A stretch of DNA of 64,000 bases from Eledone cirrhosa (Eukaryota). The position numbers were made by a program, and so were the translations under genes. Of the stretch, positions 20,885 through 63,711 are shown piece after piece (position 1 is the first letter of the stretch; each line of letters starts with the position of its first letter). The notes beneath the pieces are model-generated. The model was not told the DNA's origin. It made no database searches and saw only the letters and a program-made list of their open reading frames with translations. The stretch is from the NCBI GenBank assembly GCA_964016885.1, contig OZ024740.1:391406001-391470000 (forward strand). The letters run 5' to 3'.

Positions 20885-21702
20885 GAGGAAGACGAACTGA
20901 CCAGTCTGTTCGGGAGGACTTTCCGTCCAGGGCCTATGGATAACTTCCAGAGGTCTCTGGCCTGGCAGTGCTACCGAGGAGCTCTACCAGTTCGAGACAA
21001 AATCTACAGGCACGGACGCTCTGGCAGAGATCCTGCCAAAAGGACCTGTCCAAGATGCGAGCAGGACATCGAAACCGTTCTGCACGCAATTGTTCAGTGC
21101 CCTGGGGTGACCGACCTGTGGAATTATGTCGAACAGCTACTGTCACGTGTAGGAGGCATGCAGTTGTCAGCCGAGTCCATCGTGAGGCTCACCCCGCCGC
21201 CTTCATTTAAGAATGAAGGAGAGGCGGTCTTCCTCTGTCTGGTGGCTATGGCGAAAGAGGTAATATGGTGGACGAGGTTAAAAGGACTGAGGGCAAGCAC
21301 CTTTCTCTTCGGACAACAACTCATACCCTTCTTTAAGTACCAGTTCAGAAGGAAGGTGAGAGGTATTACACCCCAGTAAATTCGCTGAACGGTGGGTGAA
21401 TGTGGCGATAATGGCCCGGGTGAATGGGCCTTCTCTGTATATAAACCTGTAGGTTGAGGAAGATAAACAGAGGGAAGACGGGAACACCTACAAAACGTGT
21501 TCCTGGTGTTGAGGGTTGTTCTATCCACGGGGTGTAAAACAACCCCGCAATAGCGTTACCCCCCCCCTCAAATGGGCATTTCAATTGTTTTATATTATAT
21601 AGTTTATTGTTATTTATCATTGTTAAAGATTTTATGTAAAACCCCCGCCGTCACGTCTTGTAATGTCCCATTTTTGTACGCCCCTGTGGCAAATAAAGAA
21701 AC

Positions 21703-21760: not shown

Positions 21761-22514
21761 CTACAGACACGGGCGCCCGGGTAGGGACCCCGCCAAAAAG
21801 ATCTGTCCCAGATGCGTGTGCGACGAGGAAACCGTTGCACACGCATTGGTACACTGCTCGGGCGTAGCCGATCTGTGGGGCTATGTCGAACAACTGCTGT
21901 CAAGGGTGGGACCGATCCGGTTGACCACCGAGTCTATTGTAATGATCAAGCCGCCTCCCCCCTTCAAAGATGAAGCAGAGGCGGTGTTTCTGTGCGTAAT
22001 AGCCATGACGAAAGAGGTTGTATGGTGGACGCGTCTGAAAGGACTGAGGTCAGGCACCTTTCTCTCTGGCCAACAACTGGTCCGTTTCTTCCGATATCAT
22101 TTCGGAAGAAGGATCAGGATGGAGAGAGAGGTGCTGCACCCCAGCCGTTTCTATGAAAGATGGGTGAAAGTGGCGAGAATGGCCCGTGTGAATGGGCCTT
22201 CACTCTACATCAGACTATAGGTGAGGAAGATGAAAGACCAAGGGAGCACCCCTTCTCTGTGCTCCTGAGGAGAAGGGTTGCACACTTTTTTCGGGGGTGT
22301 GTGCGACCCCCCAAGGCGCCTCCTCTCTATTGAGGATTTTGTTATAAATTTTATTTTTTGTTATATCTTATTTTATTTTTATATTTTGTTATTGCCTCCT
22401 CCTTATTGAGGACGCCTTTTTGTGTAAACTCCCCCCTTTGTACTTGTCCCACTTTTGATGCCCTAGTGGCAAATAAAAGAAACATATCTATCTATCTATC
22501 TATCTATTTATCTA
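21759..22514 (+). mobile_element. 5'-truncated L1/Tx1-type element, (ATCT)n-tailed subfamily 2
   Basis: IYRHGRPGRDPAKKICPRCVCDEETVAHALVHC...RVNGPSLYIRL*; AATAAA at 22472 then (ATCT)n. Confidence 0.9.
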
Positions 22515-24471: not shown

Positions 24472-24689
24472 TGGTTTCTAGTATTGGCACAAGGCCAGTA
24501 ATTTGGGGGGAGGTGAAAGTCGATTAAATCGACCCCAGTACGTTACTGGTACTTTATTTTATCGATCCCGTAATGATGAAAGGCAAAGTTAACCTCGGCG
24601 GGATTTGAACTCAGATCATAAAGGGCCGTAGCACTATGCTGCAAAGCATGGCGTCCGACCCTCTACCCATACTGCCAATCCACCGCCCT
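24472..24689 (-). mobile_element. SINE S1 (long variant)
   Basis: Reverse-complement match to 48948-49166; partial flanking duplication gggcgtgacga. Confidence 0.8.
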
Positions 24690-24761
24690 GGGCGTGACGA
24701 CGAAGCCGGGTGCCTTTGAAGCCTCAGGTGGCTCATGATTGGTGAAACAATTAATATCATT

Positions 24762-24970
24762 ATTTTTTTTCTACTTTTAACACAAGGCCAGCAATTTGAA
24801 GGGGCGGGGAAAGTCGATTAAATCGACTCAAGTGCATTACTGGTACTATATTTTATCGACCTCGTAAGGATAAAATAAAGCACCAATAATGCACTGGAGT
24901 CGGTTTGATCGACTTTCCCCGCCCCTTCAAATTGGTGGCCTTGTGCTTAAAATAGAAACAATTATTATTA
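24762..24970. mobile_element. Two inverted SINE S1 3' halves; the plus-strand (ATT)n tail hosts the Tx1 array
   Basis: 24762-24870 is a minus-strand S1 3' half and 24870-24970 a plus-strand S1 3' half ending tagaaacaattattatt. Confidence 0.75.
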
Positions 24971-24996: not shown

Positions 24997-25039
<43 letters not shown>

Positions 25040-25041
<2 letters not shown>

Positions 25042-25839
25042 TCGGGCCGGGGCCTATGGACAACTTCCAGAAATCCCTGGCCTGGCAGTGCTACCGGGGT
25101 GCTTTGCCAGTTCGGGATAAACTTTACAGGCATGGAGGTGCCGTCAGCCGGGCATGTCCGAGATGCGCGCAGGGCGACGAAACCGTCCTGCACGCACTCG
25201 TCCAGTGTCCGAGCATTGCTGACTTGTGGGTTTATGTCGAACACCTGCTGTCACGTGTAGGACGGATCCGGCTATCATCTGAGTCCATCGTGAGGATTGC
25301 CCCGCCCTCTTCCTTTAGCCGGGAAGGGCAGGCAGTTTTTATCTGTCTGGTGGCCATGGCGAAAGAGATAGTATGGTGGACACGTTTGAAAGGGCTGAAG
25401 ACGAGCACTTACCTCTTCGGTGATGCCCTGATTAACTTTTTCAAATTTCATCTGAAAAGGAAAATCAGGGTAGAGAGGGAAGTGCTCTCTTCCCAGCATT
25501 TTGTTGAAAGATGGGTGAGAGAAGCAAGTATGGCCCGAATGAATGGGCCTTCTCTGAGTATGTGTCTGTAAATTAAGGGTGGAAAACTGGGAGAGGGCAC
25601 TTGCCCTGGTGGTCAGGGCCACTGTGGTCTTTTAATGGGCTTTCTCCACAAATGTCCCTCGGAAGATTCCCCCCTATTGGGGAATTTTTCTTTGTTATTT
25701 TATTTCATCCTCTGTTTTTTTTACACGCAGAAATGCCCATTTGTACCGTCCTGAATTGTCCTGTACTGTCCTTAATGTCTACTTTATGTGAACCCTTGTG
25801 GTTAATAAAGAAAACATTATTATTATTATTATTATTATT
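25040..25839 (+). mobile_element. 5'-truncated L1/Tx1-type element T0, first unit of the (ATT)n array
   Basis: ORF 25056-25571 equals the last 171 aa of ORF2; 3'UTR, AATAAA and (ATT)8. Confidence 0.95.
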
Positions 25840-26317
25840 GGCGACCTACGTAGGAAATCGTATTATCGTGAGCTCCGCAAAGGTTTGTTATTTCCGTTTG
25901 TTTAAAAATTGCCATTTATGGAAAATTTTATTGTAAACTGTTTATAAGCACACATACATTGTTTTCCGAAAAGGACACCCAAAAAGATTGGGGCCTTGTG
26001 CCCAAAATTTTAACTTTTATTATTATCCAAAAATTTCTTTGAAAAAAAATGGCTAATTCCCCTCTGCACGAAGCAGCTGAAAGCCTTCCTCACAAAATAA
26101 CACCTCACACCGACACCACCATTGTAAATGTTACTACGTTTGCCAACACAAAAAAAAATATAAGCAGTAGCAATATTTTAAATTTGTCTCAGGCAGACAT
26201 TCATTTCCCGCCATTACCAATGACTCCACCACCACCACCACCGCGACAACCACCACCACCACCACCGCGACAACAGAAACAAAAGAAGAAAAAAATAAAT
26301 TAACTCGTGACGTCGAA

Positions 26318-28015
26318 ATGAAATCAAGCAAAATGGACTCTTCCCCACCAAAGACGACTGACGTCACAACCACCACAACTGAAAATAAAATTAATATTAA
26401 CGATAGCAACAACAACAACAATGACATTATAAAACCGACCCTCAGTTTCGCCATCGTAGCAAAACAATTCGAAGCGTTCACGGTAACCCAAGAAGATTTA
26501 GAAAATGCCAAACAAATGGTAAAAAAAGATGGGTACAGGGTCAGCCTCACCCCCCCACCTAATAAAATGGAGCATCGGCGCCTGTGCACCGTGTCGTATA
26601 GAACAATAAATGTAAAATCGCGCCGAGTGGAACGGGCATCCGAGTCCCAAATCCAAAAAGCTTTGGGACATGTGTGGGCAAGAAAAACCCACATCAGACG
26701 TGGGCAAAAGTATGGAACCGTGGATGTGTTCTTTGAAACACCAGAGGAGGCTAGAGAACACTCCATGGCCCCATTAAAAAATGACGACCTCACACTCGTC
26801 CCAAGCTATTGTGGCCAGAGACTCGTAAAGATCAGGGTGACCCACGTTCCACCGGCCATCGAAATTCCCTGGCTAATAGCGGCTGTCCTCACCGGCATCG
26901 AAGCCAACACGAAAATAATAGCAGTAGCAAAAGAAAAGCAGGAAAACTGGTCCGGATCTGGGATGGAGCTCCTGATCCAAGCGGACCAAAAAAGCATTGA
27001 GGAGATCCCAGAGGTAATAGACCTCACTGACGGCAGCCACCTCACGGTAATTGTCGAGGGCAGAAGACCTAGGTGTGTCGTTTGTGGTGAAGGAACCCAC
27101 CTAAGGGCTTTCTGCCCTCAGGCTAAAAGGTTGAGGCCACCTCTCCTACCCACCCCAGTGACAAAACCATCAACACCACCAGTAGCAGAGATGGCAGCAA
27201 CAACTGTAGCAGCAACAACAGAAGCAACTATAACAGCAACAACCCCAGCAACAGTAGCAAAACCAACACCACTACCACCACCAGCAAAACCAACACCACC
27301 ACCACCCAACGCTTCAGAACTAGCACCAGCGCCTACACCATCCACCACACCACAACCAAAACTAACGGCTGTGGAGGATTTTCCACTCCCCGGCCTATCA
27401 CAACTGGAGACAGATTGTGACGACGAGGAGTGGGAAACGATATCCGGAAAAAAAAAAAGAAACCAAAAAAGAAAAAATTCTCTTCCTTCCCCCTCCAAAA
27501 ACAAAATACAGAGGGAAACAAATAAACTAAGAAACAAAAAAGTTAGGACAGATATGCCACCATCCACACCAGCATCACCAACCCCATCAACCCAAACACC
27601 AACACCATCACCATCATTATCCCCAGCACCACCATCACCTACACCACAAAAGTCACCAAAATTCGAAACAGAAACAAACCCACAACAAACGCAAACAAAA
27701 CAAAACAACCAAAACGATATACACTACACAGCATTAAATTTGAACAACAAGCAATTATTACACTACATCCAACACAACACCAGCATCACAGAAAAAGACT
27801 ACACAACAACCCCAAAATTCACACCACCTCCACACATACAAATCACTCGCATCACACAGAAAACGTACATGACACTAAAACAAAAATTCCCCAAAGACAT
27901 CGGAGACTTCCGACAAGCACTCTCCAGGAGGATTTATAAGGACATCCTTCCTGAGGAGGCCACAAGCAGTGAAAAGGATGGAAAAGCCGTCCTTCCCCTA
28001 CGAGAAGTAAGGTAA
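26318..28015 (+). CDS. ORF1 protein type A (gag-like, single CCHC knuckle, Pro/Thr-rich); true start probably ATG 26049, separated by a frameshift
   Basis: CVVCGEGTHLRAFC = CX2CX4HX4C; relative to A2, 16 nt (gcaggtgttaaagcct) are missing near 26225. Confidence 0.85.
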   Translation: MKSSKMDSSPPKTTDVTTTTTENKININDSNNNNNDIIKPTLSFAIVAKQFEAFTVTQEDLENAKQMVKKDGYRVSLTPPPNKMEHRRLCTVSYRTINVKSRRVERASESQIQKALGHVWARKTHIRRGQKYGTVDVFFETPEEAREHSMAPLKNDDLTLVPSYCGQRLVKIRVTHVPPAIEIPWLIAAVLTGIEANTKIIAVAKEKQENWSGSGMELLIQADQKSIEEIPEVIDLTDGSHLTVIVEGRRPRCVVCGEGTHLRAFCPQAKRLRPPLLPTPVTKPSTPPVAEMAATTVAATTEATITATTPATVAKPTPLPPPAKPTPPPPNASELAPAPTPSTTPQPKLTAVEDFPLPGLSQLETDCDDEEWETISGKKKRNQKRKNSLPSPSKNKIQRETNKLRNKKVRTDMPPSTPASPTPSTQTPTPSPSLSPAPPSPTPQKSPKFETETNPQQTQTKQNNQNDIHYTALNLNNKQLLHYIQHNTSITEKDYTTTPKFTPPPHIQITRITQKTYMTLKQKFPKDIGDFRQALSRRIYKDILPEEATSSEKDGKAVLPLREVR

Positions 28016-28049
28016 GTGGTCTTTCCCATCTTTTCCACTCCTTTTCAAC

Positions 28050-31000
28050 ATGACCTCACTCAGAATAGGCAGCATAAATGCGCGTGGCTTGGGGTCGTCA
28101 TGGAAGCAGGGCCACCAGCTCAACGACCTCAGGTCACTAAACATAGATGTAGTGGCCATCAGCGAGACCAGAATCTCCGAAGCACAGGCTTTCGCACCGA
28201 TCTTCGGCGGCTACGATGTGTACGCATCTCCCAGCCGTCCGGGATCGGGGGGAGGAGTTGCTGTGCTTTTTCGGAGAGTTTTGGATCTTGCCATACGGGC
28301 CATCTTCCTGGACCCAGAAGGTAAGCTGGTGGTGCTGGACGTGACCAGCGGAGACGGGCAAGCTTTCAGGTTAGTGGCCGTCTATGCCCCGACAGGAGCA
28401 GGGCGGCCTGATTTCTTCCGGCGTCTGGAGACCTTTCTTGGAACGTCCCGCTCTTTAGTGTTAGTGGGCGACTGGAACGGGATCTTAGATGCACGCTGGG
28501 ATTGTGTGGGATTAGTGGATAGGGAAGGAGGGTGCAAGAGTCTCACCAACCTGCTCAGACGTTTTGAACTGTCTGACAGGTACCGAATGGATTTCCCGAA
28601 TGTACCAATGTGGACTTGGACAAATCGCATAGGGTCATCCAGATCATATCTAGATAGAGTATTTTGTAGGGAAATAGATAGGTCTAGCATAGGCTGTCCA
28701 CAATTCAAGATAGTCAGCTACACGGACCACAAATTCGTGATCTGTGTGCTTGACTTAGATAGGCTTCATAGACGAGGACCCGGCTACTGGAAGCTAAACG
28801 CGTCCTTACCAGCGCGCAAGGCCTACAGAGACCGGATTAGCGAACTAGTTAAGCGGGCGTTGACGGGGGCCATCGTCAACAACAAGTGGTGGTTTGCTCT
28901 GAAAAGAGCAATTAGAATAGAGTCCATTAGGTTTAGTAAGACTTTAGCAATAGAAAAAAATAGAGCAGAGGGAGAATTAGTTAGAAAATTAGATGAGGCG
29001 CTTAGCAAAGGCATCGCGACCGACGTACTTGCGGCGAAATTGGCCCTTGACCAATTCTTCAATGCAAAGCACGAAGGCTGCGTTGTCAGAGCTAGGGTGC
29101 GTGCTCTCAGACACGAGGGGACGAAAGCCGTTCAATGGGCCCGAGTGGCGGAGGCGCGTCGTGGCAACAAAGCCACGATCGGGTCTTTGGTGGACCACGA
29201 CGGGCGCATGCTACTCGATCCCGGGCAAATGTGTGAAGCTTTTCAGCGACACTTCGCTCAACTGTTCGGGGGCAGTGGCGGGCCGGATCGAGGGATGGAC
29301 TTTAGTGTCTACCTCGACGGACTGCCGCGGCTTTCGGCCACTGAGGCGGAGTGTTGCGAAAAGCCGATAACAACCGCTGAAGTACGGGATGCAATGACTA
29401 GTTGCACAAGGGGCAAATCGCCTGGTTTGGATGGTCTGCCCTATGAACTTTACGTACAAATGCCAAACTTGTTCGGAGGCCTCTTGGCGGACGTCTACTG
29501 CAACTGGCAACAGAACGGGAGAATTCCCAGCTCTGTGAGCCGAGGAGCGGTGGCGCTGCTGAGAAAGGATCCGAACAAGGGGGATAACATAGATAATTTT
29601 AGGCCCATAACTCTGCTAAACACAGAGTTCAAGATTTTGGCCAAGGTGCTAGCAAAGAGGTTGGCGCTTGTCGTTGGTGGTCTGGTGGGAGAGGCACAGA
29701 CATGCGCCATTCCCGACAGATCCATCCACGACAACCTCCACCTCATGCGATACATCGTAGCGAGGGTAGCTAGGGAACCTGGCACGGGTGGGTCTTTGAT
29801 CAATTTAGATCAGTCGAAAGCCTTCGATAGGGTCGACCATCGTTACCTAGCGGCAGTCCTGAGGGCGGCTGGCTTTGGGCCCGTCTTCAGAGGCTGGATC
29901 GCTGCCATGCACAGCGACATCTGCTCTGTAGTGAGAGTGAACGGTCACCTTTCGGAACCGTTTAACATCATGCGCTCGGTCCGCCAAGGATGTCCCCTCT
30001 CGTCCCTATTGTACGTATTGACTCTCGAGCCATTACTGCACAAACTGGAGACGTTGAGGGGGGTCCCGCGCGAACTAGGATGCGGAAGATCCGTGTCAGC
30101 ATATGCCGACGATGTCACCGTAGTGGTGTCGAGCGCCAAACACATCGAGGCGATCGGCACTACACTAAGAGAATACGAAGAGGTGACAGGAGCAATGATC
30201 AACCAGGAAAAGTCAGTGGGCCTGCAGCTCGGCACCTGGAGAGGCAGGTCCATGCCGTCCAACAGCGTCGTCGGGCGCTGGACGGACGGACCGGTTAAAT
30301 TGCTAGGGGTCTGGTTCGGTCCAGACCTCCAGACGGACAAAAACTGGGACGAGGTGACGAGCAGGGTGGCTTCTCTCACCCAGAAATGGGCCGAGAGGAA
30401 GCTATCCCTGAAAGGTCGAGCGGAGGTGGCGAATGTGTACATCGCATCCGTCATCTACTACCGCCTGACCGTCGTACCTTGTCCTAAGCCCCGCCTGACT
30501 GCGCTGGAGCGTTTGCTCTTTCGCTTCTTGTGGAAGGGACGCGCTCCGATGGTCAGGTGGTCCATCTGCTGTCAACACCCGCTACGTGGAGGGCTGGGCA
30601 TGCCGTGGCTGATGATGCGCAGACACGCGCTCAGGCTACGACATCTCCACCTCTTCCTCGACGGTGATCAGGTGTGGTCGCCGTTTGCAAGACACGTTTT
30701 TCCCCAGCTCGTCTCCTTGACGGAGCTGCAGTCCTGGGTCAAGCGAAGACCGAGAGGGAGCGCTTGGAGACTGGAATGTCTTCAGGCGCTCACAGCCCTC
30801 GACCAATCGGGCAATGTGATCGGTGGAAACGCCACCTTGGCGTTCTATAGGGGATTAGTGGAGGGGAAGAGCGACGACGTACTTGGAGAAACTCTAGGCG
30901 TCGACGAAAATCAACTAGCCAATCTCTTCGGAAGGACTTTCGGGCCGGGGCCTATGGACAACTTCCAGAAATCCCTGGCCTGGCAGTGCTACCGAGGAGC

Positions 31001-31469
31001 TTTGCCAGTTCGGGATAAACTCTACAGGCATGGAGGTGCCGTCAGCCGGGCATGTCCGAGATGCGCGCAGGGCGACGAAACCGTCCTGCACGCACTCGTC
31101 CAGTGTCCGAGCATTGCTGATTTGTGGGTTTATGTCGAACACCTGCTGTCACGTGTAGGACCTATCCAGCTATCAGCTGGGTCCATCGTGAGGATTGCCC
31201 CGCCCCCTTCCTTTAGCCTGGAAGGGCAGGCAGTTTTTATCTGTCTGGTGGCCATGGCGAAAGAGATAGTATGGTGGACACGTTTGAAAGGGCTGAAGAC
31301 GAGCACTTACCTCTTCGGTGATGCCCTGATTAACTTTTTCAAATTTCATTTGAAAAGGAAAATCAGGGTAGAGAGGGAAGTGCTCTCTTCCCAGCATTTT
31401 GTTGAAAGATGGGTGAGAGAAGCAAGTATGGACCGAATGAATGGGCCTTCTCTGAGTATGTGTCTGTAA
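28050..31469 (+). CDS. ORF2 polyprotein: APE endonuclease, reverse transcriptase, C-terminal CCHC; intact, 1139 aa
   Basis: SINARGL, ISET, GDWN, YLDR, TDH (APE); PGYWKLN, KSPGLDG, FRPITLLN, DQSKAFD, QGCPLS, YADD (RT); CPRC-X8-H-X4-C. Confidence 0.97.
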   Translation: MTSLRIGSINARGLGSSWKQGHQLNDLRSLNIDVVAISETRISEAQAFAPIFGGYDVYASPSRPGSGGGVAVLFRRVLDLAIRAIFLDPEGKLVVLDVTSGDGQAFRLVAVYAPTGAGRPDFFRRLETFLGTSRSLVLVGDWNGILDARWDCVGLVDREGGCKSLTNLLRRFELSDRYRMDFPNVPMWTWTNRIGSSRSYLDRVFCREIDRSSIGCPQFKIVSYTDHKFVICVLDLDRLHRRGPGYWKLNASLPARKAYRDRISELVKRALTGAIVNNKWWFALKRAIRIESIRFSKTLAIEKNRAEGELVRKLDEALSKGIATDVLAAKLALDQFFNAKHEGCVVRARVRALRHEGTKAVQWARVAEARRGNKATIGSLVDHDGRMLLDPGQMCEAFQRHFAQLFGGSGGPDRGMDFSVYLDGLPRLSATEAECCEKPITTAEVRDAMTSCTRGKSPGLDGLPYELYVQMPNLFGGLLADVYCNWQQNGRIPSSVSRGAVALLRKDPNKGDNIDNFRPITLLNTEFKILAKVLAKRLALVVGGLVGEAQTCAIPDRSIHDNLHLMRYIVARVAREPGTGGSLINLDQSKAFDRVDHRYLAAVLRAAGFGPVFRGWIAAMHSDICSVVRVNGHLSEPFNIMRSVRQGCPLSSLLYVLTLEPLLHKLETLRGVPRELGCGRSVSAYADDVTVVVSSAKHIEAIGTTLREYEEVTGAMINQEKSVGLQLGTWRGRSMPSNSVVGRWTDGPVKLLGVWFGPDLQTDKNWDEVTSRVASLTQKWAERKLSLKGRAEVANVYIASVIYYRLTVVPCPKPRLTALERLLFRFLWKGRAPMVRWSICCQHPLRGGLGMPWLMMRRHALRLRHLHLFLDGDQVWSPFARHVFPQLVSLTELQSWVKRRPRGSAWRLECLQALTALDQSGNVIGGNATLAFYRGLVEGKSDDVLGETLGVDENQLANLFGRTFGPGPMDNFQKSLAWQCYRGALPVRDKLYRHGGAVSRACPRCAQGDETVLHALVQCPSIADLWVYVEHLLSRVGPIQLSAGSIVRIAPPPSFSLEGQAVFICLVAMAKEIVWWTRLKGLKTSTYLFGDALINFFKFHLKRKIRVEREVLSSQHFVERWVREASMDRMNGPSLSMCL

Positions 31470-31711
31470 ATTAAAGGTGGAAAACTGGGAGAGGGCACTT
31501 GCCCTGGTGGTCAGAGCCACTGTGGTCTTTTAATGGGCTTTCTCCACAAATGTCCCTTGGAAGTCTCCCCCCTATTGGGGAATTTTTCTTTGTTATTTTA
31601 TTTCAACCTCTGTTTTTTTACACGCAGAAATGCCCATTTGTACCGTCCTGTATTGTCCTGTACTGTCCTTAATGTCTACTTTATGTGAACCCTTGTGGTT
31701 AATAAAGAAAA

Positions 31712-31742
<31 letters not shown>

Positions 31743-31958
31743 GAATGCCATGGTTGACGGAGGCTCGGCTCTGTAAGGTATAGTAATTTTTAACCGTTAA
31801 AACAATTGTAAATTGTTTAAAACTTGAACCAAATTGTTGATAAAGACACCCTCCTCCTCGTGAGAGGGGTCTTTCTGTCCGTTATTTGGCCCTTCGGGGT
31901 TAAATAACCAGTTATTGGGGTTTTGTACCCAAAATTTCATTTTAAACAAAAAAACAAC

Positions 31959-34055
31959 ATGGCTACGAAAAAGAAATTTCATACGTCACTCCCACTCATT
32001 CCGTCTTCTTCTTCCTCAATCATCACTACACCAGAGAGAAGATTGTCTCTCTCCCTCCCTTCTTTAAATGTGTCTCTCTCCCTCCCTTCTCTTTTGCAAG
32101 TGACGAAAGAAAAGAAAAATCTCGTGCAAAGCGTGCAAGGTTTCTCCACGACGACGACGACAGCGACGAAACAGGTGTGCGGGAAATACGAAAACCCAGT
32201 TCATTCGTCTGACGTCAGGAATAATAGCAGTAACAGCCGTAATAACAACAGCAACAGTGACAATGAAAACAACAGTAGCAGCCGCAACAGCATCACCAGC
32301 AGCATAAACAACAACAGCATTAGCAGCAGCAACACCAACAACAACCACAGCAACAGCGGCGGAGGCAGTAGTCGTAGTACCTGCAGCAACAACAAAAGTA
32401 CCAGCAGCTCTGACGACAACAACAACAGCAGAGAAAAACCAATCTCATTTGCAGGTATTGCGAAAAACTTGGAAACAATCCTCATAACAAATGAGGAATT
32501 AGAGGAAGCGAAGAAGATGGTGACAAAGAACGGACACCGAGCAATCTGCAAGGCAGCGGAAAAAATTTTCGAAACCCAAGAGCACTGTACGGTCACGTAC
32601 CGTACAGTAAGTACAAAATCCCGTAGGGTGGAAAGAGCCACAGAGGCCCAAATACAAAAAGCCTTGGGGTCTGTGTGGCAGCGGAAAACGCACATCACCC
32701 GAGGCAAAAAATATGCCACCGTAGACGTACTTTTTGCCACACCCCAGGAGGCAAAGGCCCAATCAGTAGTGACCCTAAGGAGCGAGGAAATGGTGTTGGT
32801 GCCCTCCTACTGCGGGCAAAAAATTGTGAGGGTCAAACTGACCCACGTCCCCCCCGGAATGACCCCTTCTTGGCTGGCCGCGTCTGTCCTCGTCGGAATC
32901 GAGGACAAAACAACTGTACTGCAAGTACAGAAAAAAGTAAGAGAAGATTGGGTCGGCTCCTCCATTGAGATGCTAATCCAAACCAACCAGGAGTGCATCG
33001 AAGCTATCCCGGATGTGATAGACTTCGATAACGGCACTCAACTGCCCATAAGTGTTGAGGGCAAACGCCCGAAATGCTTTCGCTGTGGATCGAAGACTCA
33101 CCTCAGGGCCTTCTGCAACGAGAAGACCCTGAGAAAGGAGAAAACCCCCCTCCTTCCGAATCCGGCTCCACGGCTACCAGCAACAGGACAAGCGGCAACC
33201 AGGAACGATAGGCCCGTGGCACCCATACCCACTCCACGGAAATCAAAAACAGCAGCAGCAGTGGAAATACTAACAACAACAACAGCAATACCAAATGCAG
33301 CTGCAACAGAGACTCCAGTGCAAACATCACCAACAACAACAAGTGAAAGAGTGGAGCTGGTACCCCTCCCCGACCTCACAGAATCAGACATGGAGTGTGA
33401 GGTGGGAGAGAGATGGCAAAAGGTCGTAAGAAGGCACAAACGCAGAAGCAGCGCATCGTCGCCTTTGAAAAGGGAGGAAAGAAATGAGAAAAGGGTAAAG
33501 TCTACTGCAAAGAGACCCACAGCAGCAACAACACCAACACCATCACCACCCACACTAGGACCACCATCACCACCGGCGACAACCCCACCGCCAACAACAC
33601 CTTCAACACCACCACCACAAGCACCAACATCGCAAACACAACAACAAAACACACACACCCAGCAACAACGACAAGAAAATAGCAGAACCACACCCCACCC
33701 CCAGAAAAACAAATGCACGGCAATAAATACACACAACAAGAAACTAATGACTTACATAATTGAACACACAGACATTTCACAACAGGACTACATAATACCA
33801 GCACCAATCAAAACGCCAACTAACATAAGACTGCTAAAAATAGCACAGAAACAATACACAAACATTAAAACGAAATTCCCCAACGCAGTTGGTGATTTCA
33901 GGGACCTAGGAGGAACCATCAATCGAAGAGTATATTCAGACATTCTCTTAGAAGAGCCGACGACCAGCCGAAGGGACGATTCAACGGTCCCTTCACCAGA
34001 CGATCAAGTGAAAAGGGATGTAAAAACCATCCCTCCTCTACCAAAAGTACGGTAA
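31959..34055 (+). CDS. ORF1 protein type B, intact, 698 aa from the first ATG
   Basis: CFRCGSKTHLRAFC knuckle; core colinear with type A (KSRRVERA.E.QIQKALG.VW.RKTHI, LVPSYCGQ); Ser/Asn-rich N-terminus. Confidence 0.9.
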   Translation: MATKKKFHTSLPLIPSSSSSIITTPERRLSLSLPSLNVSLSLPSLLQVTKEKKNLVQSVQGFSTTTTTATKQVCGKYENPVHSSDVRNNSSNSRNNNSNSDNENNSSSRNSITSSINNNSISSSNTNNNHSNSGGGSSRSTCSNNKSTSSSDDNNNSREKPISFAGIAKNLETILITNEELEEAKKMVTKNGHRAICKAAEKIFETQEHCTVTYRTVSTKSRRVERATEAQIQKALGSVWQRKTHITRGKKYATVDVLFATPQEAKAQSVVTLRSEEMVLVPSYCGQKIVRVKLTHVPPGMTPSWLAASVLVGIEDKTTVLQVQKKVREDWVGSSIEMLIQTNQECIEAIPDVIDFDNGTQLPISVEGKRPKCFRCGSKTHLRAFCNEKTLRKEKTPLLPNPAPRLPATGQAATRNDRPVAPIPTPRKSKTAAAVEILTTTTAIPNAAATETPVQTSPTTTSERVELVPLPDLTESDMECEVGERWQKVVRRHKRRSSASSPLKREERNEKRVKSTAKRPTAATTPTPSPPTLGPPSPPATTPPPTTPSTPPPQAPTSQTQQQNTHTQQQRQENSRTTPHPQKNKCTAINTHNKKLMTYIIEHTDISQQDYIIPAPIKTPTNIRLLKIAQKQYTNIKTKFPNAVGDFRDLGGTINRRVYSDILLEEPTTSRRDDSTVPSPDDQVKRDVKTIPPLPKVR

Positions 34056-34090
34056 GTGGTCTTTCCCATCTTTTCCACTCTATTTTAAAC

Positions 34091-37000
34091 ATGACCTCAC
34101 TCAGAATAGGCAGCATAAATGCGCGTGGCTTGGGGTCGTCATGGAAGCAGGGTCACCTGCTCAACGACCTCAGGTCACTAAACATAGATGTAGTGGCCAT
34201 CAGCGAGACCAGAATCTCCGAAGCACGGGCCTTCGCACCGATCTTCGGCGGCTACGATGTGTACGCATCTCCCAGCCGTCCTGGGTCGGCTGGAGGAGTT
34301 GCTGTGCTTTTTCGGAGAGGTTTGGATCTCGCCATACGGGCCATCTTCCTGGACCCAGAGGGTAAGCTGGTGGTGCTGGACGTGACCAGCGGAGACGGGC
34401 AAGCTTTCAGGCTAGTGGCCGTCTATGCCCCGACAGGAGCAGGGCGGCCTGATTTCTTCCGGCGTCTGGAGACCTTTCTTGGAACGTCCCGCTCTTTAGT
34501 GTTAGTGGGCGACTGGAACGGGATCTTAGATGCACGCTGGGACTGTGTGGGATTAGCGGATAGGGGTGGAGGGTGCAAGAGCCTCACCAACCTGCTCAGG
34601 CGTTTTGAACTGTCTGACAGGTACCGATTGGATTTCCCGAATGTTCCAATGTGGACTTGGACAAACCGCATAGGGTCATCCAGATCATATCTAGATAGAG
34701 TATTTTGTAGGGAAATAGATAGGTCTAGCATAGGCTGTCCACAATTCAAGATAGTCAGCTACACGGACCTCAAATTCGTAATCTGTGTGCTTGACTTAGA
34801 TAGGCTTCATAGACGAGGACCCGGCTACTGGAAGCTAAACGCGTCCTTACCAGCGCGCAAGGCCTACAGAGACCGGATTAGCGAACTAGTTAAGCGGGCG
34901 TTGACGGGGGCCATCGTCAACAACAAGTGGTGGTTTGCTCTGAAAAGAGCGATTAGAATAGAATCGATTAGGTTTAGTAAGGCTTTAGCAATAGAGAAAA
35001 ATAGAGCAGAGGGAGAACTAGTTAGAAAATTAGACGAGGCGCTTAGCAAAGGCATTGCGACCGACGTGCGTGCGGCGAAATTGGCCCTTGACCAATTCTT
35101 CAATGCAAAGCACGAAGGCTGCGTTGTCAGAGCAAGGGTGCGTGCTCTCAGACACGAGGGGACGAAAGCCGTTCAATGGGCCCGAGTGGCGGAGGCGCGT
35201 CGTGGCAACAAAGCCACGATCCGGTCTTTGGTGGACCACGACGGGCGCATGCTACTCGATCCCGGGCAAATGTGTGAAGCTTTTCAGCGACACTTCGCTC
35301 AGCTGTTCGGGGGCAGCGGTGGGCCGGGTAGAGGGATGGACTTTAGTGTCTACCTCGACGGACTGCCGCGGCTCTCGGCCACTGAGGCGAAGTGTTGCGA
35401 AAAGCCGATAACAGCCGCTGAAGTAAGGGAGGCAATGACTGGCTGCACAAGGGGTAAATCGCCTGGTTTGGATGGTCTGCCCTATGAACTTTACGTACAG
35501 ATGCCAGACTTGTTCGGAGGCCTCTTGGCGGACGTCTACTGCAACTGGCAACAGAACGGGAGAATTCCCAGTTCTGTGAGCCGAGGAACGGTGGCTCTGC
35601 TGAGAAAGGATCCGAACAAGGGGGATAACATAGATAATTTCCGGCCCATAACTCTGCTAAACACAGAGTTCAAGATTTTGGCCAAGGTGCTAGCAAAGAG
35701 GTTGGCGCTTGTCGTTGGTGGTCTGGTGGGAGAGGCGCAGACATGCGTCATTCCCGACAGATCCATCCACGACAACCTCCACCTCATGCGATACATCATA
35801 GAGAGGGTAGCTAAGGAACCTGGCACGGGTGGGTCTTTGATCAATTTAGATCAGTCGAAAGCTTTCGATAGGGTCGACCATCGTTACCTAGCGGCAGTCC
35901 TGAGGGCGGCTGGCTTTGGGCCCGTCTTCAGAGGCTGGATCGCTGCCATGCACAGCGACATCTGCTCTGTAGTGAGAGTGAACGGTCACCTTTCGGAACC
36001 GTTCAACATCATGCGCTCGGTCCGCCAAGGATGTCCCCTCTCGTCCCTCTTGTACGTATTGACTCTCGAGCCATTACTGCACAAACTGGAGACGTTGAGG
36101 GGAGTCCCGCGCGAACTAGGATGCGGAAGATCCGTGTCAGCATATGCGGACGATGTCACCGTAGTGGTGTCGAACGCCAAACACATCGAGGCGATCGGCA
36201 CTACACTAAGAGAATACGAAGCGGTGACAGGAGCAATGATCAACCAGGAAAAGTCAGTGGGCCTGCAGCTCGGCACCTGGAGAGGCAGGTCCATGCCGTC
36301 CAACAGTGTCGTCGGAGGCTGGACGGACGGACCGGGTAAATTGCTAGGGGTCTGGTTCGGTCCGGACCTCCAGACGGACAAAAACTGGGACGAGGTGACG
36401 AGCAGGGTGGCTTCTCTCACCCAGAAATGGGCGGAGAGGAAGCTATCCCTGAAAGGTCGAGCGGAGGTGGCTAACGCGTACATCGCGTCTGTCATCTGCT
36501 ACCGCCTGACCGTCGTACCTTGTACTAAGCCTCGCCTGACTTCGCTGGAGCGTTTGCTCTTTCGCTTTTTGTGGAAGGGACGTGCTCCGATGGTCAGGTG
36601 GTCCATCTGTTGTCAACACCCGCTACGTGGAGGGCTGGGCATGCCGTGGCTGATGATGCGCAGGCACGCGCTCAGGCTACGACATCTCCACCTCTTCCTC
36701 GACGGTGATCAGGTGTGGTCGCCGTTTGCTAGACGCGTATTTCCCCAGCTCGTTTCCTTGACGGAGCTGCAGTCCTGGGTCAAGCGACGACCGAGAGGGA
36801 GCGCCTGGAGACTGGAATGTCTTCAGGCGCTCACAGCCCTCGACCAATCGGGCAATGTGATCGGTGGAAACTCCACCTCGGCGTTCTATAGAGGATTAGT
36901 GGAGGGGAAGAGCGAAGACGTACTTGGGGAAACTCTAGGCGTCGACGAAAATCAACTAGCCAATCTCTTCGGAAGGACTTTCGGGCCGGGGCCTATGGAC

Positions 37001-37510
37001 AACTTCCAGAAATCTCTGGCCTGGCAGTGCTACCGAGGAGCCTTGCCAGTTCGGGATAAACTCTACAGGCATGGAGGTACCGTCAGCCGGGCATGTCCGA
37101 GATGCGCGCAGGGCGACGAAACCGTCCTGCACGCACTCGTCCAGTGTCCGAGCATTGCTGACTTGTGGGTTTATGTCGAACACCTGCTGTCGCGTTTAGG
37201 ACGGATCCGGCTATCATCTGAGTCCATCGTGAGGATTGCCCCGCCCTCCTCCTTTAGCCGGGAAGGGCAGGCAGTTTTTATCTGTCTGGTGGCCATGGCG
37301 AAAGAGATAGTATGGTGGACACGTTTGAAAGGGCTGAAGACGAGCACTTACCTCTTCGGTGATGCTCTGATTGACTTTTCCAAATTTCATTTGAAAAGGA
37401 AAATCAGAGTAGAGAGGGAAGTGCTCTCTTCCCAGCATTTTGTTGAAAGATGGGTGAGAGAAGCAAGAATGGCCCGAGTGAATGGGCCTACTCTGAGTAT
37501 ATATCTGTAA
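34091..37510 (+). CDS. ORF2 polyprotein (APE-RT-CCHC), open 1139 aa, but catalytic TDH changed to TDL
   Basis: Same motifs as A1; codon 34769-34771 is CTC where A1 and A2 have CAC. Confidence 0.95.
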   Translation: MTSLRIGSINARGLGSSWKQGHLLNDLRSLNIDVVAISETRISEARAFAPIFGGYDVYASPSRPGSAGGVAVLFRRGLDLAIRAIFLDPEGKLVVLDVTSGDGQAFRLVAVYAPTGAGRPDFFRRLETFLGTSRSLVLVGDWNGILDARWDCVGLADRGGGCKSLTNLLRRFELSDRYRLDFPNVPMWTWTNRIGSSRSYLDRVFCREIDRSSIGCPQFKIVSYTDLKFVICVLDLDRLHRRGPGYWKLNASLPARKAYRDRISELVKRALTGAIVNNKWWFALKRAIRIESIRFSKALAIEKNRAEGELVRKLDEALSKGIATDVRAAKLALDQFFNAKHEGCVVRARVRALRHEGTKAVQWARVAEARRGNKATIRSLVDHDGRMLLDPGQMCEAFQRHFAQLFGGSGGPGRGMDFSVYLDGLPRLSATEAKCCEKPITAAEVREAMTGCTRGKSPGLDGLPYELYVQMPDLFGGLLADVYCNWQQNGRIPSSVSRGTVALLRKDPNKGDNIDNFRPITLLNTEFKILAKVLAKRLALVVGGLVGEAQTCVIPDRSIHDNLHLMRYIIERVAKEPGTGGSLINLDQSKAFDRVDHRYLAAVLRAAGFGPVFRGWIAAMHSDICSVVRVNGHLSEPFNIMRSVRQGCPLSSLLYVLTLEPLLHKLETLRGVPRELGCGRSVSAYADDVTVVVSNAKHIEAIGTTLREYEAVTGAMINQEKSVGLQLGTWRGRSMPSNSVVGGWTDGPGKLLGVWFGPDLQTDKNWDEVTSRVASLTQKWAERKLSLKGRAEVANAYIASVICYRLTVVPCTKPRLTSLERLLFRFLWKGRAPMVRWSICCQHPLRGGLGMPWLMMRRHALRLRHLHLFLDGDQVWSPFARRVFPQLVSLTELQSWVKRRPRGSAWRLECLQALTALDQSGNVIGGNSTSAFYRGLVEGKSEDVLGETLGVDENQLANLFGRTFGPGPMDNFQKSLAWQCYRGALPVRDKLYRHGGTVSRACPRCAQGDETVLHALVQCPSIADLWVYVEHLLSRLGRIRLSSESIVRIAPPSSFSREGQAVFICLVAMAKEIVWWTRLKGLKTSTYLFGDALIDFSKFHLKRKIRVEREVLSSQHFVERWVREARMARVNGPTLSIYL

Positions 37511-37759
37511 ATTAAAGGTGGAAAACTGGGAGAGGGCACTTGCCTTGGTGGTCAGGGTCATTGTGGCTTTTTACTGGGCTTTCTCCACAAATGTCCCTCT
37601 GAAGTCTCCCCCCTATTGGGGAATTTTTCATTGTTATTTTTTGTTACATCCTCTTTTTTTGGTTTTTTACACGCAGAAATGCCCATTTGTACCGTCCTGC
37701 ATTGTCCTGCACTGTCCTTAATGTCTACTTTATGTAAACCCTTGTGGTTAATAAAGAAA

Positions 37760-37806
<47 letters not shown>

Positions 37807-38013
37807 GGCGACCTACGTATTAAATCGTATCATCGTGAGCTCCGCAAAGGTTTGTTATTTCCGTTTGTTAAAAATTGCCATTTATGGAAAATTTTATTGT
37901 TAACTGTTTATAAGCACACATACATTGTTTTCCGAAAAGGACACCCAAAAAGATTGGGGCCTTGTGCCCAAAATTTTAACTTTTATTATTATCAAAAAAT
38001 TTCTTTGAAAGAA

Positions 38014-39971
38014 ATGGCTACTTCACCTCTGCACGAAGCAGCTGAAAGCCTTCCTCACAAAATAACACCTCACACCGACACCACCATTGTAAATGTTACT
38101 ACGTTTGCCAACACAAAAAAAATATAAGCAGTAGCAATATTTTAAATTTGTCTCAGGCAGACATTCATTTCCCGCCATTACCAATGACTGCAGGTGTTAA
38201 AGCCTCCACCACCACCACCACCACCGCGACAACCACCACCACCACCACCACGACAACAGAAACAAAAGAAGAAAAAAATAAATTAACTCGTGATGTCGAA
38301 ATGAAATCAAGCAAAATGGACTCTTCCCCACCAAAGACGACTGACGTCACCACAACCACAACTGAAACTAAAATTAATATTAACGATAGCAACAACAACA
38401 ACAATGACATTATAAAACCCCCCTCAGTTTCGCCAGAGTAGCAAAACAATTCGAAGCATTTACCGTAACTCAGGAAGATTTAGAAAATGCCGAACAAATG
38501 GTAAAGAAAGATGGGTACAGGGTCAGCCTCACCCCCCACCTAATAAAATGGAGCATCGGCACCTATGCACCGTGTCGTATAGAACAATAAATGTAAAATC
38601 GCGCCGAGTGGAACGGGCATCCGAGTCCCAAATCCAAAAAGCTAACCCACATCAGACGTGGGCAAAAGTATGGAACCGTGGACGTGTTCTTTGAAACACC
38701 AGAGGAGGCTAGAGAACACTCAATGGCACCATTAAAAAGTGACGACTTCACACTCGTCCCAAGCTATTGTGGCCAGAGACTCGTAAAGATCAGGGTGACC
38801 CACGTTCCACCGGCCATCGAAATTCCCTGGCTAATAGCGGCCGTCCTCGCCGGCATCGATGCCAACACGAAAATAATAGCAATAGCAAAAGAAAAGCAGG
38901 AAAACTGGTCCGGATCTGGGATGGAGCTCCTGATCCAAGCGAACCAAAAAAGCATTGAGGAGATCCCAGAGGTAATAGACCTCACTGACGGCAGCCACCT
39001 CACGGTAATTGTCGAGGGCAGAAGACCTAGGTGTGTCGTTTGTGGTGAAGGAACCCACCTAAGGGCTTTCTGCCCTCAGGCTAAAAGGTTGAGGCCACCT
39101 CTCCTACCCACCCCAGTGACACAACCATCAACACCACCAGTAGCAGAGATGGCAGCAACAACTGTAGCAGCAACAACAGAAGCAACTATAACAGCAACAA
39201 CCCCAGCAACAGTAGCAAAACCAACACCACCAACACCACCACCAGCAAAACCAACACCACCACCACCACCACCCAACGCTTCAGAACTAGCACCAGCGCC
39301 TACACCATCCACCACGCCACAACCAAAACTAACGGCTGTGGAGGATTTTCCACTCCCCGGCCTATCACAACTGGAGACAGATTGTGACGACGAGGAGTGG
39401 GAAACGATATCCGGAAAAAAAAAAGAAACCAAAAAAGAAAAAATTCTCTTCCTTCCCCCTCCAAAAACAAAATACAGAGGGAAACAAATAAATTAAGAAA
39501 CAAAAAAGTTAGGACAGATATGCCACCATCCACACCAGCATCACCAACCCCATCAACCCAAACACCAACACCATCACCATCATTAACCCCAACACCACCA
39601 TCACCTACACCACAAAAGTCACCAAAATGCGAAACAGAAACAAACCCACAACAAACGCAAACAACCAAAACGATACACACTACACAGCATTAAATTTGAA
39701 CAACAAGCAATTATTACACTACATCCAACACAACACCAGCATCACAGAAAAAGACTACACAACAACCCCCAAATTCACACCACCTCCACACATACAAATC
39801 ACTCGCATCACACAGAAAACGTACATGACACTAAAACAAAAATTCCACAAAGACATCGGAGACTTCCGACAAGCACTCTCCAGGAGGATTTATAATGACA
39901 TCCTTCCTGAGGAGGCCACAAGCAGTGAAAAGGATGGAAAAACCGTCCTTCCCCTACGAGAAGTAAGGTAA
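38014..39971 (+). pseudogene. Disrupted ORF1 type A
   Basis: Frameshifts near 38120, 38420, 39420 and 39660, and a deletion near 38643 relative to A1. Confidence 0.9.
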
Positions 39972-40005
39972 GTGGTCTTTCCCATCTTTTCCACTCCTTT
40001 TCAAC

Positions 40006-43000
40006 ATGACCTCACTCAGAATAGGCAGCATAAATGCGCGTGGCTTGGGGTCGTCATGGAAGCAGGGCCACCTGCTCAACGACCTCAGGTCACTAAACAT
40101 AGATGTAGTGGCCATCAGCGAGACCAGAATCTCCGAAGCACGGGCTTTCGCACCGATCTTCGGCGGCTACGATGTGTACGCATCTCCCAGCCGTCCGGGA
40201 TCGGGGGGAGGAGTTGCTGTGCTTTTTCGGAGAGGTTTGGATCTTGCCATACGGGCCATCTTCCTGGACCCAGAAGGTAAGTTGGTGGTGCTGGACGTGA
40301 CCAGCGGAGACGGGCGAGCTTTCAGGTTAGTGGCCGTCTATGCCCCGACAGGAGCAGGGCGGCCTGATTTCTTCCGGCGTCTGGAGACCTTTCTTGGAAC
40401 GTCCCGCTCTTTAGTGTTAGTGGGCGACTGGAACGGGATCTTAGATGCACGCTGGGATTGTGTGGGATTAGTGGATAGGGATGGAGAGTGCAAGAGTCTC
40501 ACCAACCTGCTCAGACGTTTTGAACTGTCTGACAGGTACCGAATGGATTTCCCGAATGTACCAATGTGGACTTGGACAAATCGCATAGGGTCATCCAGAT
40601 CATATCTAGATAGAGTATTTTGTAGGGAAATAGATAGGTCTAGCATAGGCTGTCCACAATTCAAGATAGTCAGCTACACGGACCACAAATTCGTGATCTG
40701 TGTGCTTGACTTAGATAGGCTTCATAGACGAGGACCCGGCTACTGGAAGCTAAACGCGTCCTTACCAGCGCGCAAGGCCTACAGAGACCGGATTAGCGAA
40801 CTAGTTAAGCGGGCGTTGACGGGGGCCATCGTCAACAACAAGTGGTGGTTTGCTCTGAAAAGAGCAATTAGAATAGAGTCCATTAGGTTTAGTAAGACTT
40901 TAGCAATAGAGAAAAATAGAGCAGAGGGAGAATTATTTAGAAAATTAGATGAGGCGCTTAGCAAAGGCATCACGACCGACGTACTTGCGGCGAAATTGGC
41001 CCTTGACCAATTCTTCAATGCAAAGCACGAAGGCTGCATTGTCAGAGCTAGGGTGCGTGCTCTCAGACACGAGGGGACGAAAGCCGTTCCATGGGCCCGA
41101 GTGGCGGAGGCGCGTCGTGGCAACAAAGCCACGATCCGGTCTTTGGTGGACAACGACTGGCGCATGCTACTCGATCCCGGGCAAATGTGTGAAGCTTTTC
41201 AGCGACACTTCGCTCAACTGTTCGGGGGCAGTGGCGGGCCAGATCGAGGGATGGACTTTAGTGTCTACCTCGACGGACTGCCGCGGCTTTCGGCCACTGA
41301 GGCGGAGTGTTGCGAAAAGCCGATAACAACCGCTGAAGTACGGGATGCAATGACTAGTTGCACAAGGGGTAAATCGCCTGGTTTGGATGGTCTGCCCTAT
41401 GAACTTTACGTACAAATGCCAAACTTGTTCGGAGGCCTCTTGGCGGACGTCTACTGCAACTGGCAATAGAACGGGAGAATTCCCAGCTCTGTGAGCCGAG
41501 GAGCGGTGGCGCTGCTGAGAAAGGATCCGAACAAGGGGGATAACATAGATAATTTTAGGCCCATAACTCTGCTAAACACAGAGTTCAAGATTTTGGCCAA
41601 GGTGCTAGCAAAGAGGTTGGCGCTTGTCGTTGGTGGTCTGGTGGGAGAGGCACAGACATGCGCCATTCCCGACAGATCCATCCACGACAACCTCCACCTC
41701 ATGCGATACATCGTAGAGAGGGTAGCTAGGGAACCTTGCACGGGTGGGTCTTTGATCAATTTAGATCAGTCGAAAGCCTTCGATAGGGTCGACCATCGTT
41801 ACCTAGCGGCAGTCCTGAGGGCGGCTGGCTTTGGGCCCGTCTTCAGAGGCTGGATCGCTGCCATGCACAGCGACATCTGCTCTGTAGTGAGAGTGAACGG
41901 TCACCTTTCGGAACCGTTCAACATCATGCGCTCGGTCCGCCAAGGATGTCCCCTCTCGTCCCTATTGTACGATTGACTCTCGAGCCATTACTGCACAAAC
42001 TGGAGACGTTGAGGGGGGTCCCGCGCGAACTAGGATGCGGAAGATCCGTGTCAGCATATGCGGACGATGTCACCGTAGTGGTGTCGAACGCCAAACACAT
42101 CGAGGCGATCGGCACTACACTAAGAGAATACGAAGCGGTGACAGGAGCAATGATCAACCAGGAAAAGTCAGTGGGCCTGCAGCTCGGCACCTGGAGAGGC
42201 AGGTCCATGCCGTCCAACAGCGTCGTCGGGCGCTGGACGGACGGACCGGTTAAATTGCTAGGGGTCTGGTTCGGTCCAGACCTCCAGACGGACAAAAACT
42301 GGGACGAGGTGACGAGCAGGGTGGCTTCCCTCACCCAGAAATGGGCCGAGAGGAAGCTATCCCTGAAAGGTCGAGCGGAGGTGGCTAACGCGTACATCGC
42401 ATCCGTCATCTACTACCGCCTGACCGTCGTACCTTGTCCTAAGCCCCGCCTGACTGCGCTGGAGCGTTTGCTCTTTCGCTTCTTGTGGAAGGGACGCGCT
42501 CCGATGGTCAGGCGGTCCATCTGCTGTCAACACCCGCTACGTGGAGGGCTGGGCATGCCGTGGCTGATGATGCGCAGACACGCGCTCAGGCTACGACATC
42601 TCCACCTCTTCCTCGACGGTGATCAGGTGTGGTCGCCGTTTGCGAGACACGCTTTTCCCCAGCTCGTCTACTTGACGGAGCTGCAGTCCTGCGTCAAGCG
42701 AAGACCGAGAGGGAGCGCTTGGAGACTGGAATGTCTTCAGGCGCTCACAGCCCTCGACCAATCGGGCAATGTGATCGGTGGAAACTCCACCTTGGCGTTC
42801 TATAGGGGATTAGTGGAGGGGAAGAGCGACGACGTACTTGGAGAAACTCTAGGCGTCGACGAAAATCAACTAGCCAATCTCTTCAGAAGGACTTTCGGGC
42901 CGGGGCCTATGGACAACTTCCAGAAATCCCTGGCCTGGCAGTGCTACCGAGGAGCTTTGCCAGTTCGGGATAAACTCTACAGGCATGGAGGTGCCGTCAG

Positions 43001-43424
43001 CCGGGCATGTCCGAGATGCGCGCAGGGCGACGAAACCGTCCTGCACGCACTCGTCCAGTGTCCGAGCATTGCTGACTTGTGGGTTTATGTCGAACACCTG
43101 CTGTCACGTGTAGGACGGATCCAGCTATCAGCTGAGTCCATCGTGAGGATTGTCCCGCCCCTTTCCTTTAGCCGGGAAGGGCAGGCAGTTTTTATCTGTC
43201 TGGTGGCCATGGCGAAAGAGATAGTATGGTGGACACGTTTGAAAGGGCTGAAGACGAGCACTTACCTCTTCGGTGATGCCCTGATTAACTTTTTCAAATT
43301 TCATTTGAAAAGGAAAATCAGGGTAGAGAGGGAAGTGCTCTCTTCCCAGCATTTTGTTGAAAGATGGGTGAGAGAAGCAAGTATGGACCGAATGAATGGG
43401 CCTTCTCTGAGTATGTGTCTGTAA
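40006..43424 (+). pseudogene. Disrupted ORF2
   Basis: CAG to TAG at 41467-41469; 1-nt deletion near 41972. Confidence 0.92.
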
Positions 43425-43667
43425 ATTAAAGGTGGAAAACTGGGAGAGGGCACTTGCCCTGGTGGTCAGGGCCACTGTGGTCTTTTAATGGGCTTTCTCC
43501 ACAAATGCCCCTCGGAAGTCTCCCCCCTATTGGGGAATTTTTCTTTGTTATTTTATTTCAACCTCTGTTTTTTTTACACGCAGAAATGCCCATTTGTACC
43601 GTCCTGTATTGTCCTGTACTGTCCTTAATGTCTACTTTATGTAAACCCTTGTGGTTAATAAAGAAAA

Positions 43668-43726
<59 letters not shown>

Positions 43727-63680: not shown

Positions 63681-63711
63681 TTCATCGACCCCGTAAGGCT
63701 AAGAGGTGTAT

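Follow-up and report, generated by a model that had tools for sequence, protein, structure and literature searches.

The window examined here is a 64,000-nucleotide stretch of the Eledone cirrhosa genome (contig OZ024740.1, positions 391,406,001 to 391,470,000), and it contains a head-to-tail array of retrotransposon units separated by runs of the trinucleotide ATT. We regard it as very probable that the array consists of four separate insertions of a young, abundant long interspersed nuclear element (LINE) of the L1 group, Tx1-like in character, whose full-length copies almost always start directly behind a same-strand (ATT)n run and whose (ATT)n tails likely serve as landing sites for later copies made elsewhere. 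All four units lie on the plus strand in the order T0, A1, B and A2, with only ATT runs, each of them pure, between them.

24997..25041, plus strand: (ATT)15, the left-hand portion of the target tract; 5' of it lie (AGA)7 and the ATT tail of a repeat resembling a short interspersed nuclear element (SINE) that ends near 24958.
25042..25815, plus strand: T0, 774 nt, a 5'-truncated A-type copy holding the end of open reading frame (ORF) 2 and the 3' untranslated region (UTR), with TT microhomology at its 5' junction.
25816..25839, plus strand: (ATT)8 spacer.
25840..31712, plus strand: A1, 5,873 nt, A-type, 5'-complete; ORF1 (ATG at 26049) is frameshifted, an open frame at 26171-28015 carries the CCHC knuckle, and ORF2 (28050-31469) is open.
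31713..31742, plus strand: (ATT)10 spacer.
31743..37761, plus strand: B, 6,019 nt, B-type, 5'-complete; ORF1 (31959-34055, 698 amino acids) and ORF2 (34091-37510) are both open, with Leu in place of the endonuclease His at codon 34769.
37762..37806, plus strand: (ATT)15 spacer.
37807..43668, plus strand: A2, 5,862 nt, A-type, 5'-complete; ORF1 is frameshifted, and ORF2 is interrupted by a stop near 41467 and thrown out of frame near 41.9 kb.
43645..43662, plus strand: 3'-terminal hairpin AACC-CTTGT-GGTT, overlapped by an AATAAA; every unit ends with this pair of features.
43669..43725, plus strand: (ATT)19, made up of the A2 tail and the right-hand portion of the target; (AGT)4 comes next.

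A first-pass annotation had described four same-orientation units separated only by (ATT)n, and the coordinates bear this layout out, although the start that it gave, 25040, falls within the first (ATT)15, which begins just to the left at 24997. A1 and A2 do begin at the same nucleotide, as that annotation had said, and they are 98.4% identical. Its statement that three of the four units are full length holds in the sense that they are 5'-complete, but not in the sense that they are intact, as each long unit has a disabling change. Unit B is only 49-62% alike to the A-type over the first ~2.3 kb (5' UTR and ORF1), but the likeness rises to 92-99% in ORF2 and the 3' UTR, and the ORF2 proteins of the two types are 96% identical. 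Because the types differ in 5' UTR and ORF1 but not in ORF2, A and B are, to judge from their sequences, two 5' modules on one enzyme.

The units of the array are not each other's closest kin. In a set of 76 full-length copies plus T0, compared over the shared 3' 3.7 kb, the copy nearest to A1 (0.76% away) lies at another locus, while A2, at 1.24%, ranks 22nd of 76. A1 and A2 share one rare variant, T0 shares none with either, and no A/B block mosaic was found among the window units at 95 diagnostic columns. Since the units are neither nearest relatives nor mosaics, they are independent insertions, which probably joined the array beside the T0 tail, and the earlier judgement that this is not a simple tandem duplication is upheld. 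Distance from the column majorities is 1.81% for T0, 1.11% for A2, 0.83% for B and 0.53% for A1, with A1 younger than A2 (p = 0.0005). The likely order of insertion would be T0, A2, B and then A1 beside the T0 tail, the placing of A1 after A2 being the one step that rests on a test.

The preference for (ATT)n extends over the whole 3-Gb genome, which holds 9,810 exact matches to the 3' end of the family and at least 4,700 of its 5' ends, or heads. In exact whole-genome counts, 2,136 of 2,293 A heads stand directly behind (ATT)3 in register; for the B type there are 2,390 heads, and 2,338 matches to (ATT)6 joined to a shorter B head, the two patterns not being nested. An ATT run precedes every one of the 60 heads that best match those of the window, with one of these runs ending in GTT. 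The strand-specific targeting of (ATT)n that had been proposed for this element is thus confirmed in both strand and phase across the genome. The proposal that the tail is itself the target repeat fares equally well, and most copies do not have non-(ATT)n 5' flanks: full-length copies nearly always start behind a same-strand (ATT)n. This preference is far above the 20% used as a criterion for target preference in PMC4494074. Among 3' ends sampled at the start of the sequence labelled C1, 23 of 36 (40 rows less four sister-family rows) in one set and 18 of 40 in another lie on copies with a complete 5' end. About half of the copies are full length, and most sampled full-length copies lie less than 2% from the column majorities. 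Internal deletions are common among family copies.

The array probably does not copy itself, being a sink rather than a self-running engine. A1 has an open ORF2 and a frameshifted ORF1 that runs for only 84 amino acids when read from the first ATG. In B both frames are open, but Leu replaces the His of the endonuclease TDH motif, a residue that we take to be catalytic in APE-type (apurinic/apyrimidinic) endonucleases and that is kept in 70 of 71 readable copies. In A2, ORF1 and ORF2 are both broken. With a disabling change in all three long units, growth would have come from copies elsewhere in the genome, so the earlier description of the array as 'self-growing' needs to be qualified. The family as a whole does appear to copy, and both frames are open in 15 of the 76 sampled full-length copies. 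The A-type ORF1 is broken far more often, exceeding 600 amino acids from its first ATG in 4/31 A copies versus 17/34 B copies. A perfect splice-donor word, AG/GTAAGT, lies over the ORF1 stop at 28010-28016 in A1 and near 34050 in B, and a pyrimidine run precedes the ORF2 ATG. Recurrent splicing at this word was rejected, as the sampled copies show no recurrent breakpoint there.

How ordinary such an array is can be judged from the supply of landing sites. The genome contains 40,016 pure (ATT)9+ runs (19,807 + 8,817 + 11,392), and 5,650 of them (14%) are preceded by a family-type tail with the AAGAAANC end, belonging to this family or to its sisters, which account for 4 of 30 sampled tails with that end. 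On C1, a family tail stands before 15 of the first 60 heads, against the 14% background (p = 0.02), and, among heads with a comparably long run, before 11 of 36 (p = 0.013). Tandem placement is therefore only about twice background, the frequency of tail-to-head junctions being drawn from samples rather than from a genome-wide count. If elements chose ATT tracts at random, a geometric model would predict 23-115 arrays with at least four units, and regions picked from hit lists include further arrays, namely one stretch of 32 kb with five B copies and two arrays of three units. The array in the window is ordinary for this genome. No family copy lies in front of 45 of the 60 first heads on C1, and short tail tags of the HeT-A kind before heads are rare and show no enrichment by inspection of the sampled heads, so the read-through that had been suggested as a source of transcription may play a part but is not required.

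Other origins for the array were weighed against separate insertion. That it arose from one or two insertions through DNA-level tandem duplication or unequal crossing-over is very unlikely, given that adjacent units of the window are never nearest relatives, rare variants go unshared, A/B mosaics are absent and A1 and A2 differ in age. Such exchange is nevertheless plain elsewhere in the family. In L147 the 5' part agrees with the unit downstream and the 3' part with the unit upstream, L131 follows the same pattern, and the array of five B copies within 32 kb on C1 (G000:C1:55.42-55.46 Mb, L351-L355) holds a foreign 816-nt spacer, an R4-like fragment, duplicated without difference at two junctions, which is a sign of DNA-level duplication. 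The units might instead have been inserted together, as read-through dimer transcripts or by template jumping, with the upstream copy acting as promoter in the manner of HeT-A. The twofold tandem excess is in keeping with this, as are a few heads behind short tail pieces of 75-705 nt, such as A1 behind T0. However, solo heads are in the majority; most upstream partners, among the matches listed, are full length with an ATT flank of their own; upstream B and downstream A copies have star-like, unlinked relations; T0 looks older than A1; and the excess itself may be explained by unequal exchange. Joint insertion is a very unlikely origin.

A misjoining of repeat copies at ATT runs during assembly is the least credible of these explanations and can be called extremely unlikely. 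Contigs and restriction-site-associated DNA (RAD) reads compared with the array and its right flank, simple repeats being skipped, gave no record that spans the array, which is a point in its favour, but the flanks on the two sides belong to a single compound microsatellite, similar junctions occur by the hundred genome-wide, and each unit has private variants, which argue against a collapsed or expanded repeat. One sample yielded a contig matching 43745-44010, to the right of the array, exactly. Sequencing runs under nine other organism labels had a word share of 0.21-0.48, and one of them was compared with the element. Some circumstances do tell against separate insertion as we read it: no empty allele of the locus was seen in the contigs and RAD reads compared, sampling drew largely on the first 60 Mb of C1 or on the best matches to the window's heads, and only 13 of the 15 tandem heads on C1 were classed by script, the other 2 by eye.

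Further signs of exchange appear elsewhere in the family. Three B copies at G000:C1:57.08-57.11 Mb (L356-L358) have spacers made of an identical 42-nt copy of the left flank, and their rare variants are common only to the first 0.6-1.4 kb, as if new 3' parts had been joined to the 5' part of a resident copy. Other same-type neighbours (a55_3-4, a55_4-5, a56 and L275-L274) give no sign of crossover, the pairs checked not being a random sample. There are also chimeras that change cleanly between A and B, once or twice, within ORF2 (L092, L117, L142 and others), in which the 5' modules exchange 3' parts.

As for clade, ORF2 of A1 and B matches Pfam families Exo_endo_phos, RVT_1 and zf-RVT, all above cut-offs, in a layout of N-terminal APE endonuclease, reverse transcriptase (RT) and C-terminal zinc-binding region. 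Compared with PDB sequences, a set that includes L1 and R2 but not the CR1, RTE and I clades, ORF2 aligns to L1 ORF2p over residues 5-855 (E-value 3e-51) and to R2 over the RT only (2e-21). By homology, the element is an L1-group non-LTR (lacking long terminal repeats) retrotransposon. The nearest named protein is a hypothetical protein from Argonauta hians, at 73% in the RT region. ORF1 has no Pfam match above cut-off; direct reading of both translations reveals a CX2CX4HX4C knuckle, and the ORF1 of the Tx1 clade has a gag-like CCHC knuckle of this sort. Tx1 is thus the candidate clade, and membership would fit the anatomy. The name Tx1 appears on none of the homologues, cluster members or ESM Atlas matches, and the tree of 37 homologues was without a named reference. 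Assignment to the Dong/R4 clade was rejected, since the element has two ORFs and an N-terminal APE domain, as opposed to a single ORF with a C-terminal restriction-like endonuclease.

Much of this behaviour is already known from other systems: Tx1 microsatellite targeting, TAA targeting by Dong, R1 arrays by reinsertion, and tandems by double insertion followed by exchange. Target-sequence preference is common in the Tx1 clade (PMC4494074), and the Kibi, Koshi and crocodilian families are Tx1 LINEs that enter the microsatellites (TC)n, (TTC)n, (TTCC)n and (TTTC)n in fish and crocodilians (PMC4494074, PMC3812793). Like these, the array element is an APE-type LINE found in a specific microsatellite; unlike them, it targets (ATT)n, has ~10,000 copies of which half are full length, and has had its arrays counted. 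Dong, of the R4 clade, is specific for TAA microsatellites (PMC3812793) and so uses the same microsatellite. Drosophila R1 forms head-to-tail arrays by inserting repeatedly at a target that is restored (Stage and Eickbush 2009, PMC2718515), although it belongs to the R1 clade, targets 28S rDNA and has a tail that is not the target. A general route to transposon tandems, double insertion and then unequal exchange, was described by McGurk and Barbash (2018, PMC5932611), and both steps are visible across the arrays of this family; the non-LTR tandem junctions in that study mostly involve 5'-truncated copies, whereas those here are mostly full head-to-tail with an (ATT)n spacer. In Octopus vulgaris, R4-Dong and L1-Tx1 are both listed as active (PMC13282606, PMC10294476), with 13 active L1-Tx1 and 5 Dong-R4 families in Table 1 of PMC13282606. 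The accessible parts of PMC4640811 and PMC4758252 contain nothing on the array's family. No (ATT)n-targeting Tx1/L1 family of APE LINEs is described in the literature surveyed, a scope outside which lie Repbase, Dfam, subscription journals and supplements that could hold it (for example, the Octopus vulgaris repeat library of PMC13282606).

The 5' junctions were surveyed at 187 distinct 3' ends, 135 of them with a resolvable 5' side. Three or more ATT units stand in front of 80 of 82 5'-complete copies versus 14 of 53 truncated ones (p = 1e-19), a contrast weakened by later deletions and a few duplicated loci that inflate the truncated class. Not one of 139 heads has fewer than six units before it when single interruptions are allowed, and one later copy has five. 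The run is longer before A heads (median 13 units) than before B heads (median 9; p = 8e-6), whereas tail length does not differ between the types (medians 12 and 13; p = 0.45). This difference between full-length and truncated copies, together with a run length that depends on head type, suggests an (AUU)n leader, and full-length RNA with such a leader annealing to the target would be the simplest reading of the 5' junctions, to which we give roughly an even chance. Full-length copies with fewer than five pure units on the 3' side lack a matching duplication before the head in 10 of 12 cases. SINE tails that stand before heads have 9-20 units (6/6), and those without a head have a median of 3 (n = 57).

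Against a leader, with a likelihood that falls just short of even, stands the view that the ATT run before the head is purely target DNA, produced by 15-25 nt duplication within long pure tracts, and that truncated copies lack it through resection, looser joining or later deletion. In its favour, L326 and L333, both truncated, have duplications of 15 and 16 nt, and the full-length L349, which has only 5 units in front, has one of 15 nt; by themselves, duplications of 15-16 nt could give the floor of 5-6 units. In all, three full-length copies have target-site duplications (15, 34 and 42 nt), which elsewhere are hidden in pure repeats. At L095:6094-6160 the duplication reaches beyond the ATT run, a 24-nt target-derived unit with the upstream-tail end being repeated twice. 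The head starts with G in 138 of 139 cases, in both head types, as would be expected of a cap-derived base of the kind known in L1. Nor do the 5' tracts have shared interruptions of the kind that an inherited leader might leave. The floor, the initial G and the missing interruptions all weigh against the leader. Target DNA alone fits less well with the fact that truncated copies sit also in degenerate or short tracts (ATTGTTGCTGTT-type tracts, and SINE tails of 3, 5 and 7 units), where no full-length copy is found, with the variation of 5' tract length by head type despite 96% identical ORF2, or with L317 and L346, which are followed by a single ATT but preceded by 12 and 23 units. L300 likewise has a duplication beyond the ATT run, and a truncated copy there is joined 8 nt inside a B head.

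With target strand and phase, copy numbers, independence of the units, their defects and DNA-level duplication in some other arrays all shown, integration could proceed along the lines of known target-primed reverse transcription. The APE endonuclease would nick the (AAT)n strand, and the RNA 3' end would prime there. Insertion would split the tract into left and right tracts, both reusable, and arrays would lengthen roughly geometrically. If the leader reading is right, which is about an even bet, full-length RNA would start inside the upstream tract and carry an (AUU)6-20 leader, and its cDNA would anneal to the target and yield the exact ATT/head junction; truncated cDNAs, having no leader, would join by microhomology with 15-16 nt duplications. 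A similar arrangement has been proposed for R1 of Drosophila melanogaster, in which full-length transcripts with 6-27 nt of upstream target anneal to give precise 5' junctions and truncated copies show target duplications (PMC2718515); the present family has the same split, with precise junctions in full-length copies and variable ones with duplications in truncated copies. In R2, ~28 nt of rRNA anneals to the target (PMC13580325). Tandems are scarce for the leader-bearing type of R1; in the present family a single repeat would act as leader, tail and target.

The tails of the family also adjoin other elements. Behind 32 of 84 terminal family tails, some of these loci being segmental duplicates, the C-terminus of another element is found in tail-to-tail arrangement, always on the opposite strand. 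Its RT is R2-like and it has a restriction-like nuclease motif in its C-terminal part, unlike the array element with its N-terminal APE domain and two ORFs. This neighbour is presumably R4/Dong-like, the clade label coming from sequence motifs. At L097:6215-9378 (minus strand), and behind those 32 tails, such LINEs with at least three 3'-end types occupy the same ATT/AAT tracts. A 3' hairpin with a CTTGT loop and three or more pairs occurs at 276 of 317 ATT-tailed ends, compared with 149 of 1,733 control sites, these counts representing a few families counted many times and not independent events. The arms are AACC/GGTT in this family (154), GCC/GGC and GGCC/GGCC in sister LINEs (24), and GGC/GCC in a SINE-like repeat (74). 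The hairpin is likely a mark by which the RT recognises the RNA, and the SINE is likely mobilised by this LINE group.

A broader picture, which we offer tentatively and hold to be somewhat less probable than its opposite, is of a LINE with simple-repeat pseudo-terminal repeats. Its RNA would begin and end in (AUU)n, the two promoter/ORF1 types would each set a leader length of their own, and full-length insertion would be completed by annealing of the leader to the target. One repeat, doubled with each insertion, would thus serve as leader, tail and target. Together with the R4/Dong-like element and the hairpin-sharing SINEs, it would form a community that makes and competes for ATT microsatellites and seeds satellites of 6-kb units by unequal exchange. 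Apart from this picture, (ATT)n joins the list of microsatellites targeted by APE-type LINEs, and the family is big and young enough for statistics on 5' joining, the least understood step of LINE integration. Because family-type tails precede about 14% of long ATT runs, the element is a major maker of microsatellites, and also a major source of 12-30 kb tandems that recombine. The finding gains interest if the repeat leader is true.

Additional repeats are present in the window. SINE-like repeats at 24500-24960 and 63600-63842 have a tRNA-like head by eye, a CTTGT-loop hairpin and an (ATT)n end. Two inverted SINE-like copies form a long palindrome at 24775-24952, and the array lies in the extended tail of one SINE-like repeat. 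A search of 23.5-26.2 kb against Rfam returned only sub-threshold microRNA matches, to the palindromic repeat. Diverged sister-LINE fragments of 68-77% identity, some with a similar 3' end, occur at 20895-21451, 21804-22206, 50900-51437 and 62830-63400.

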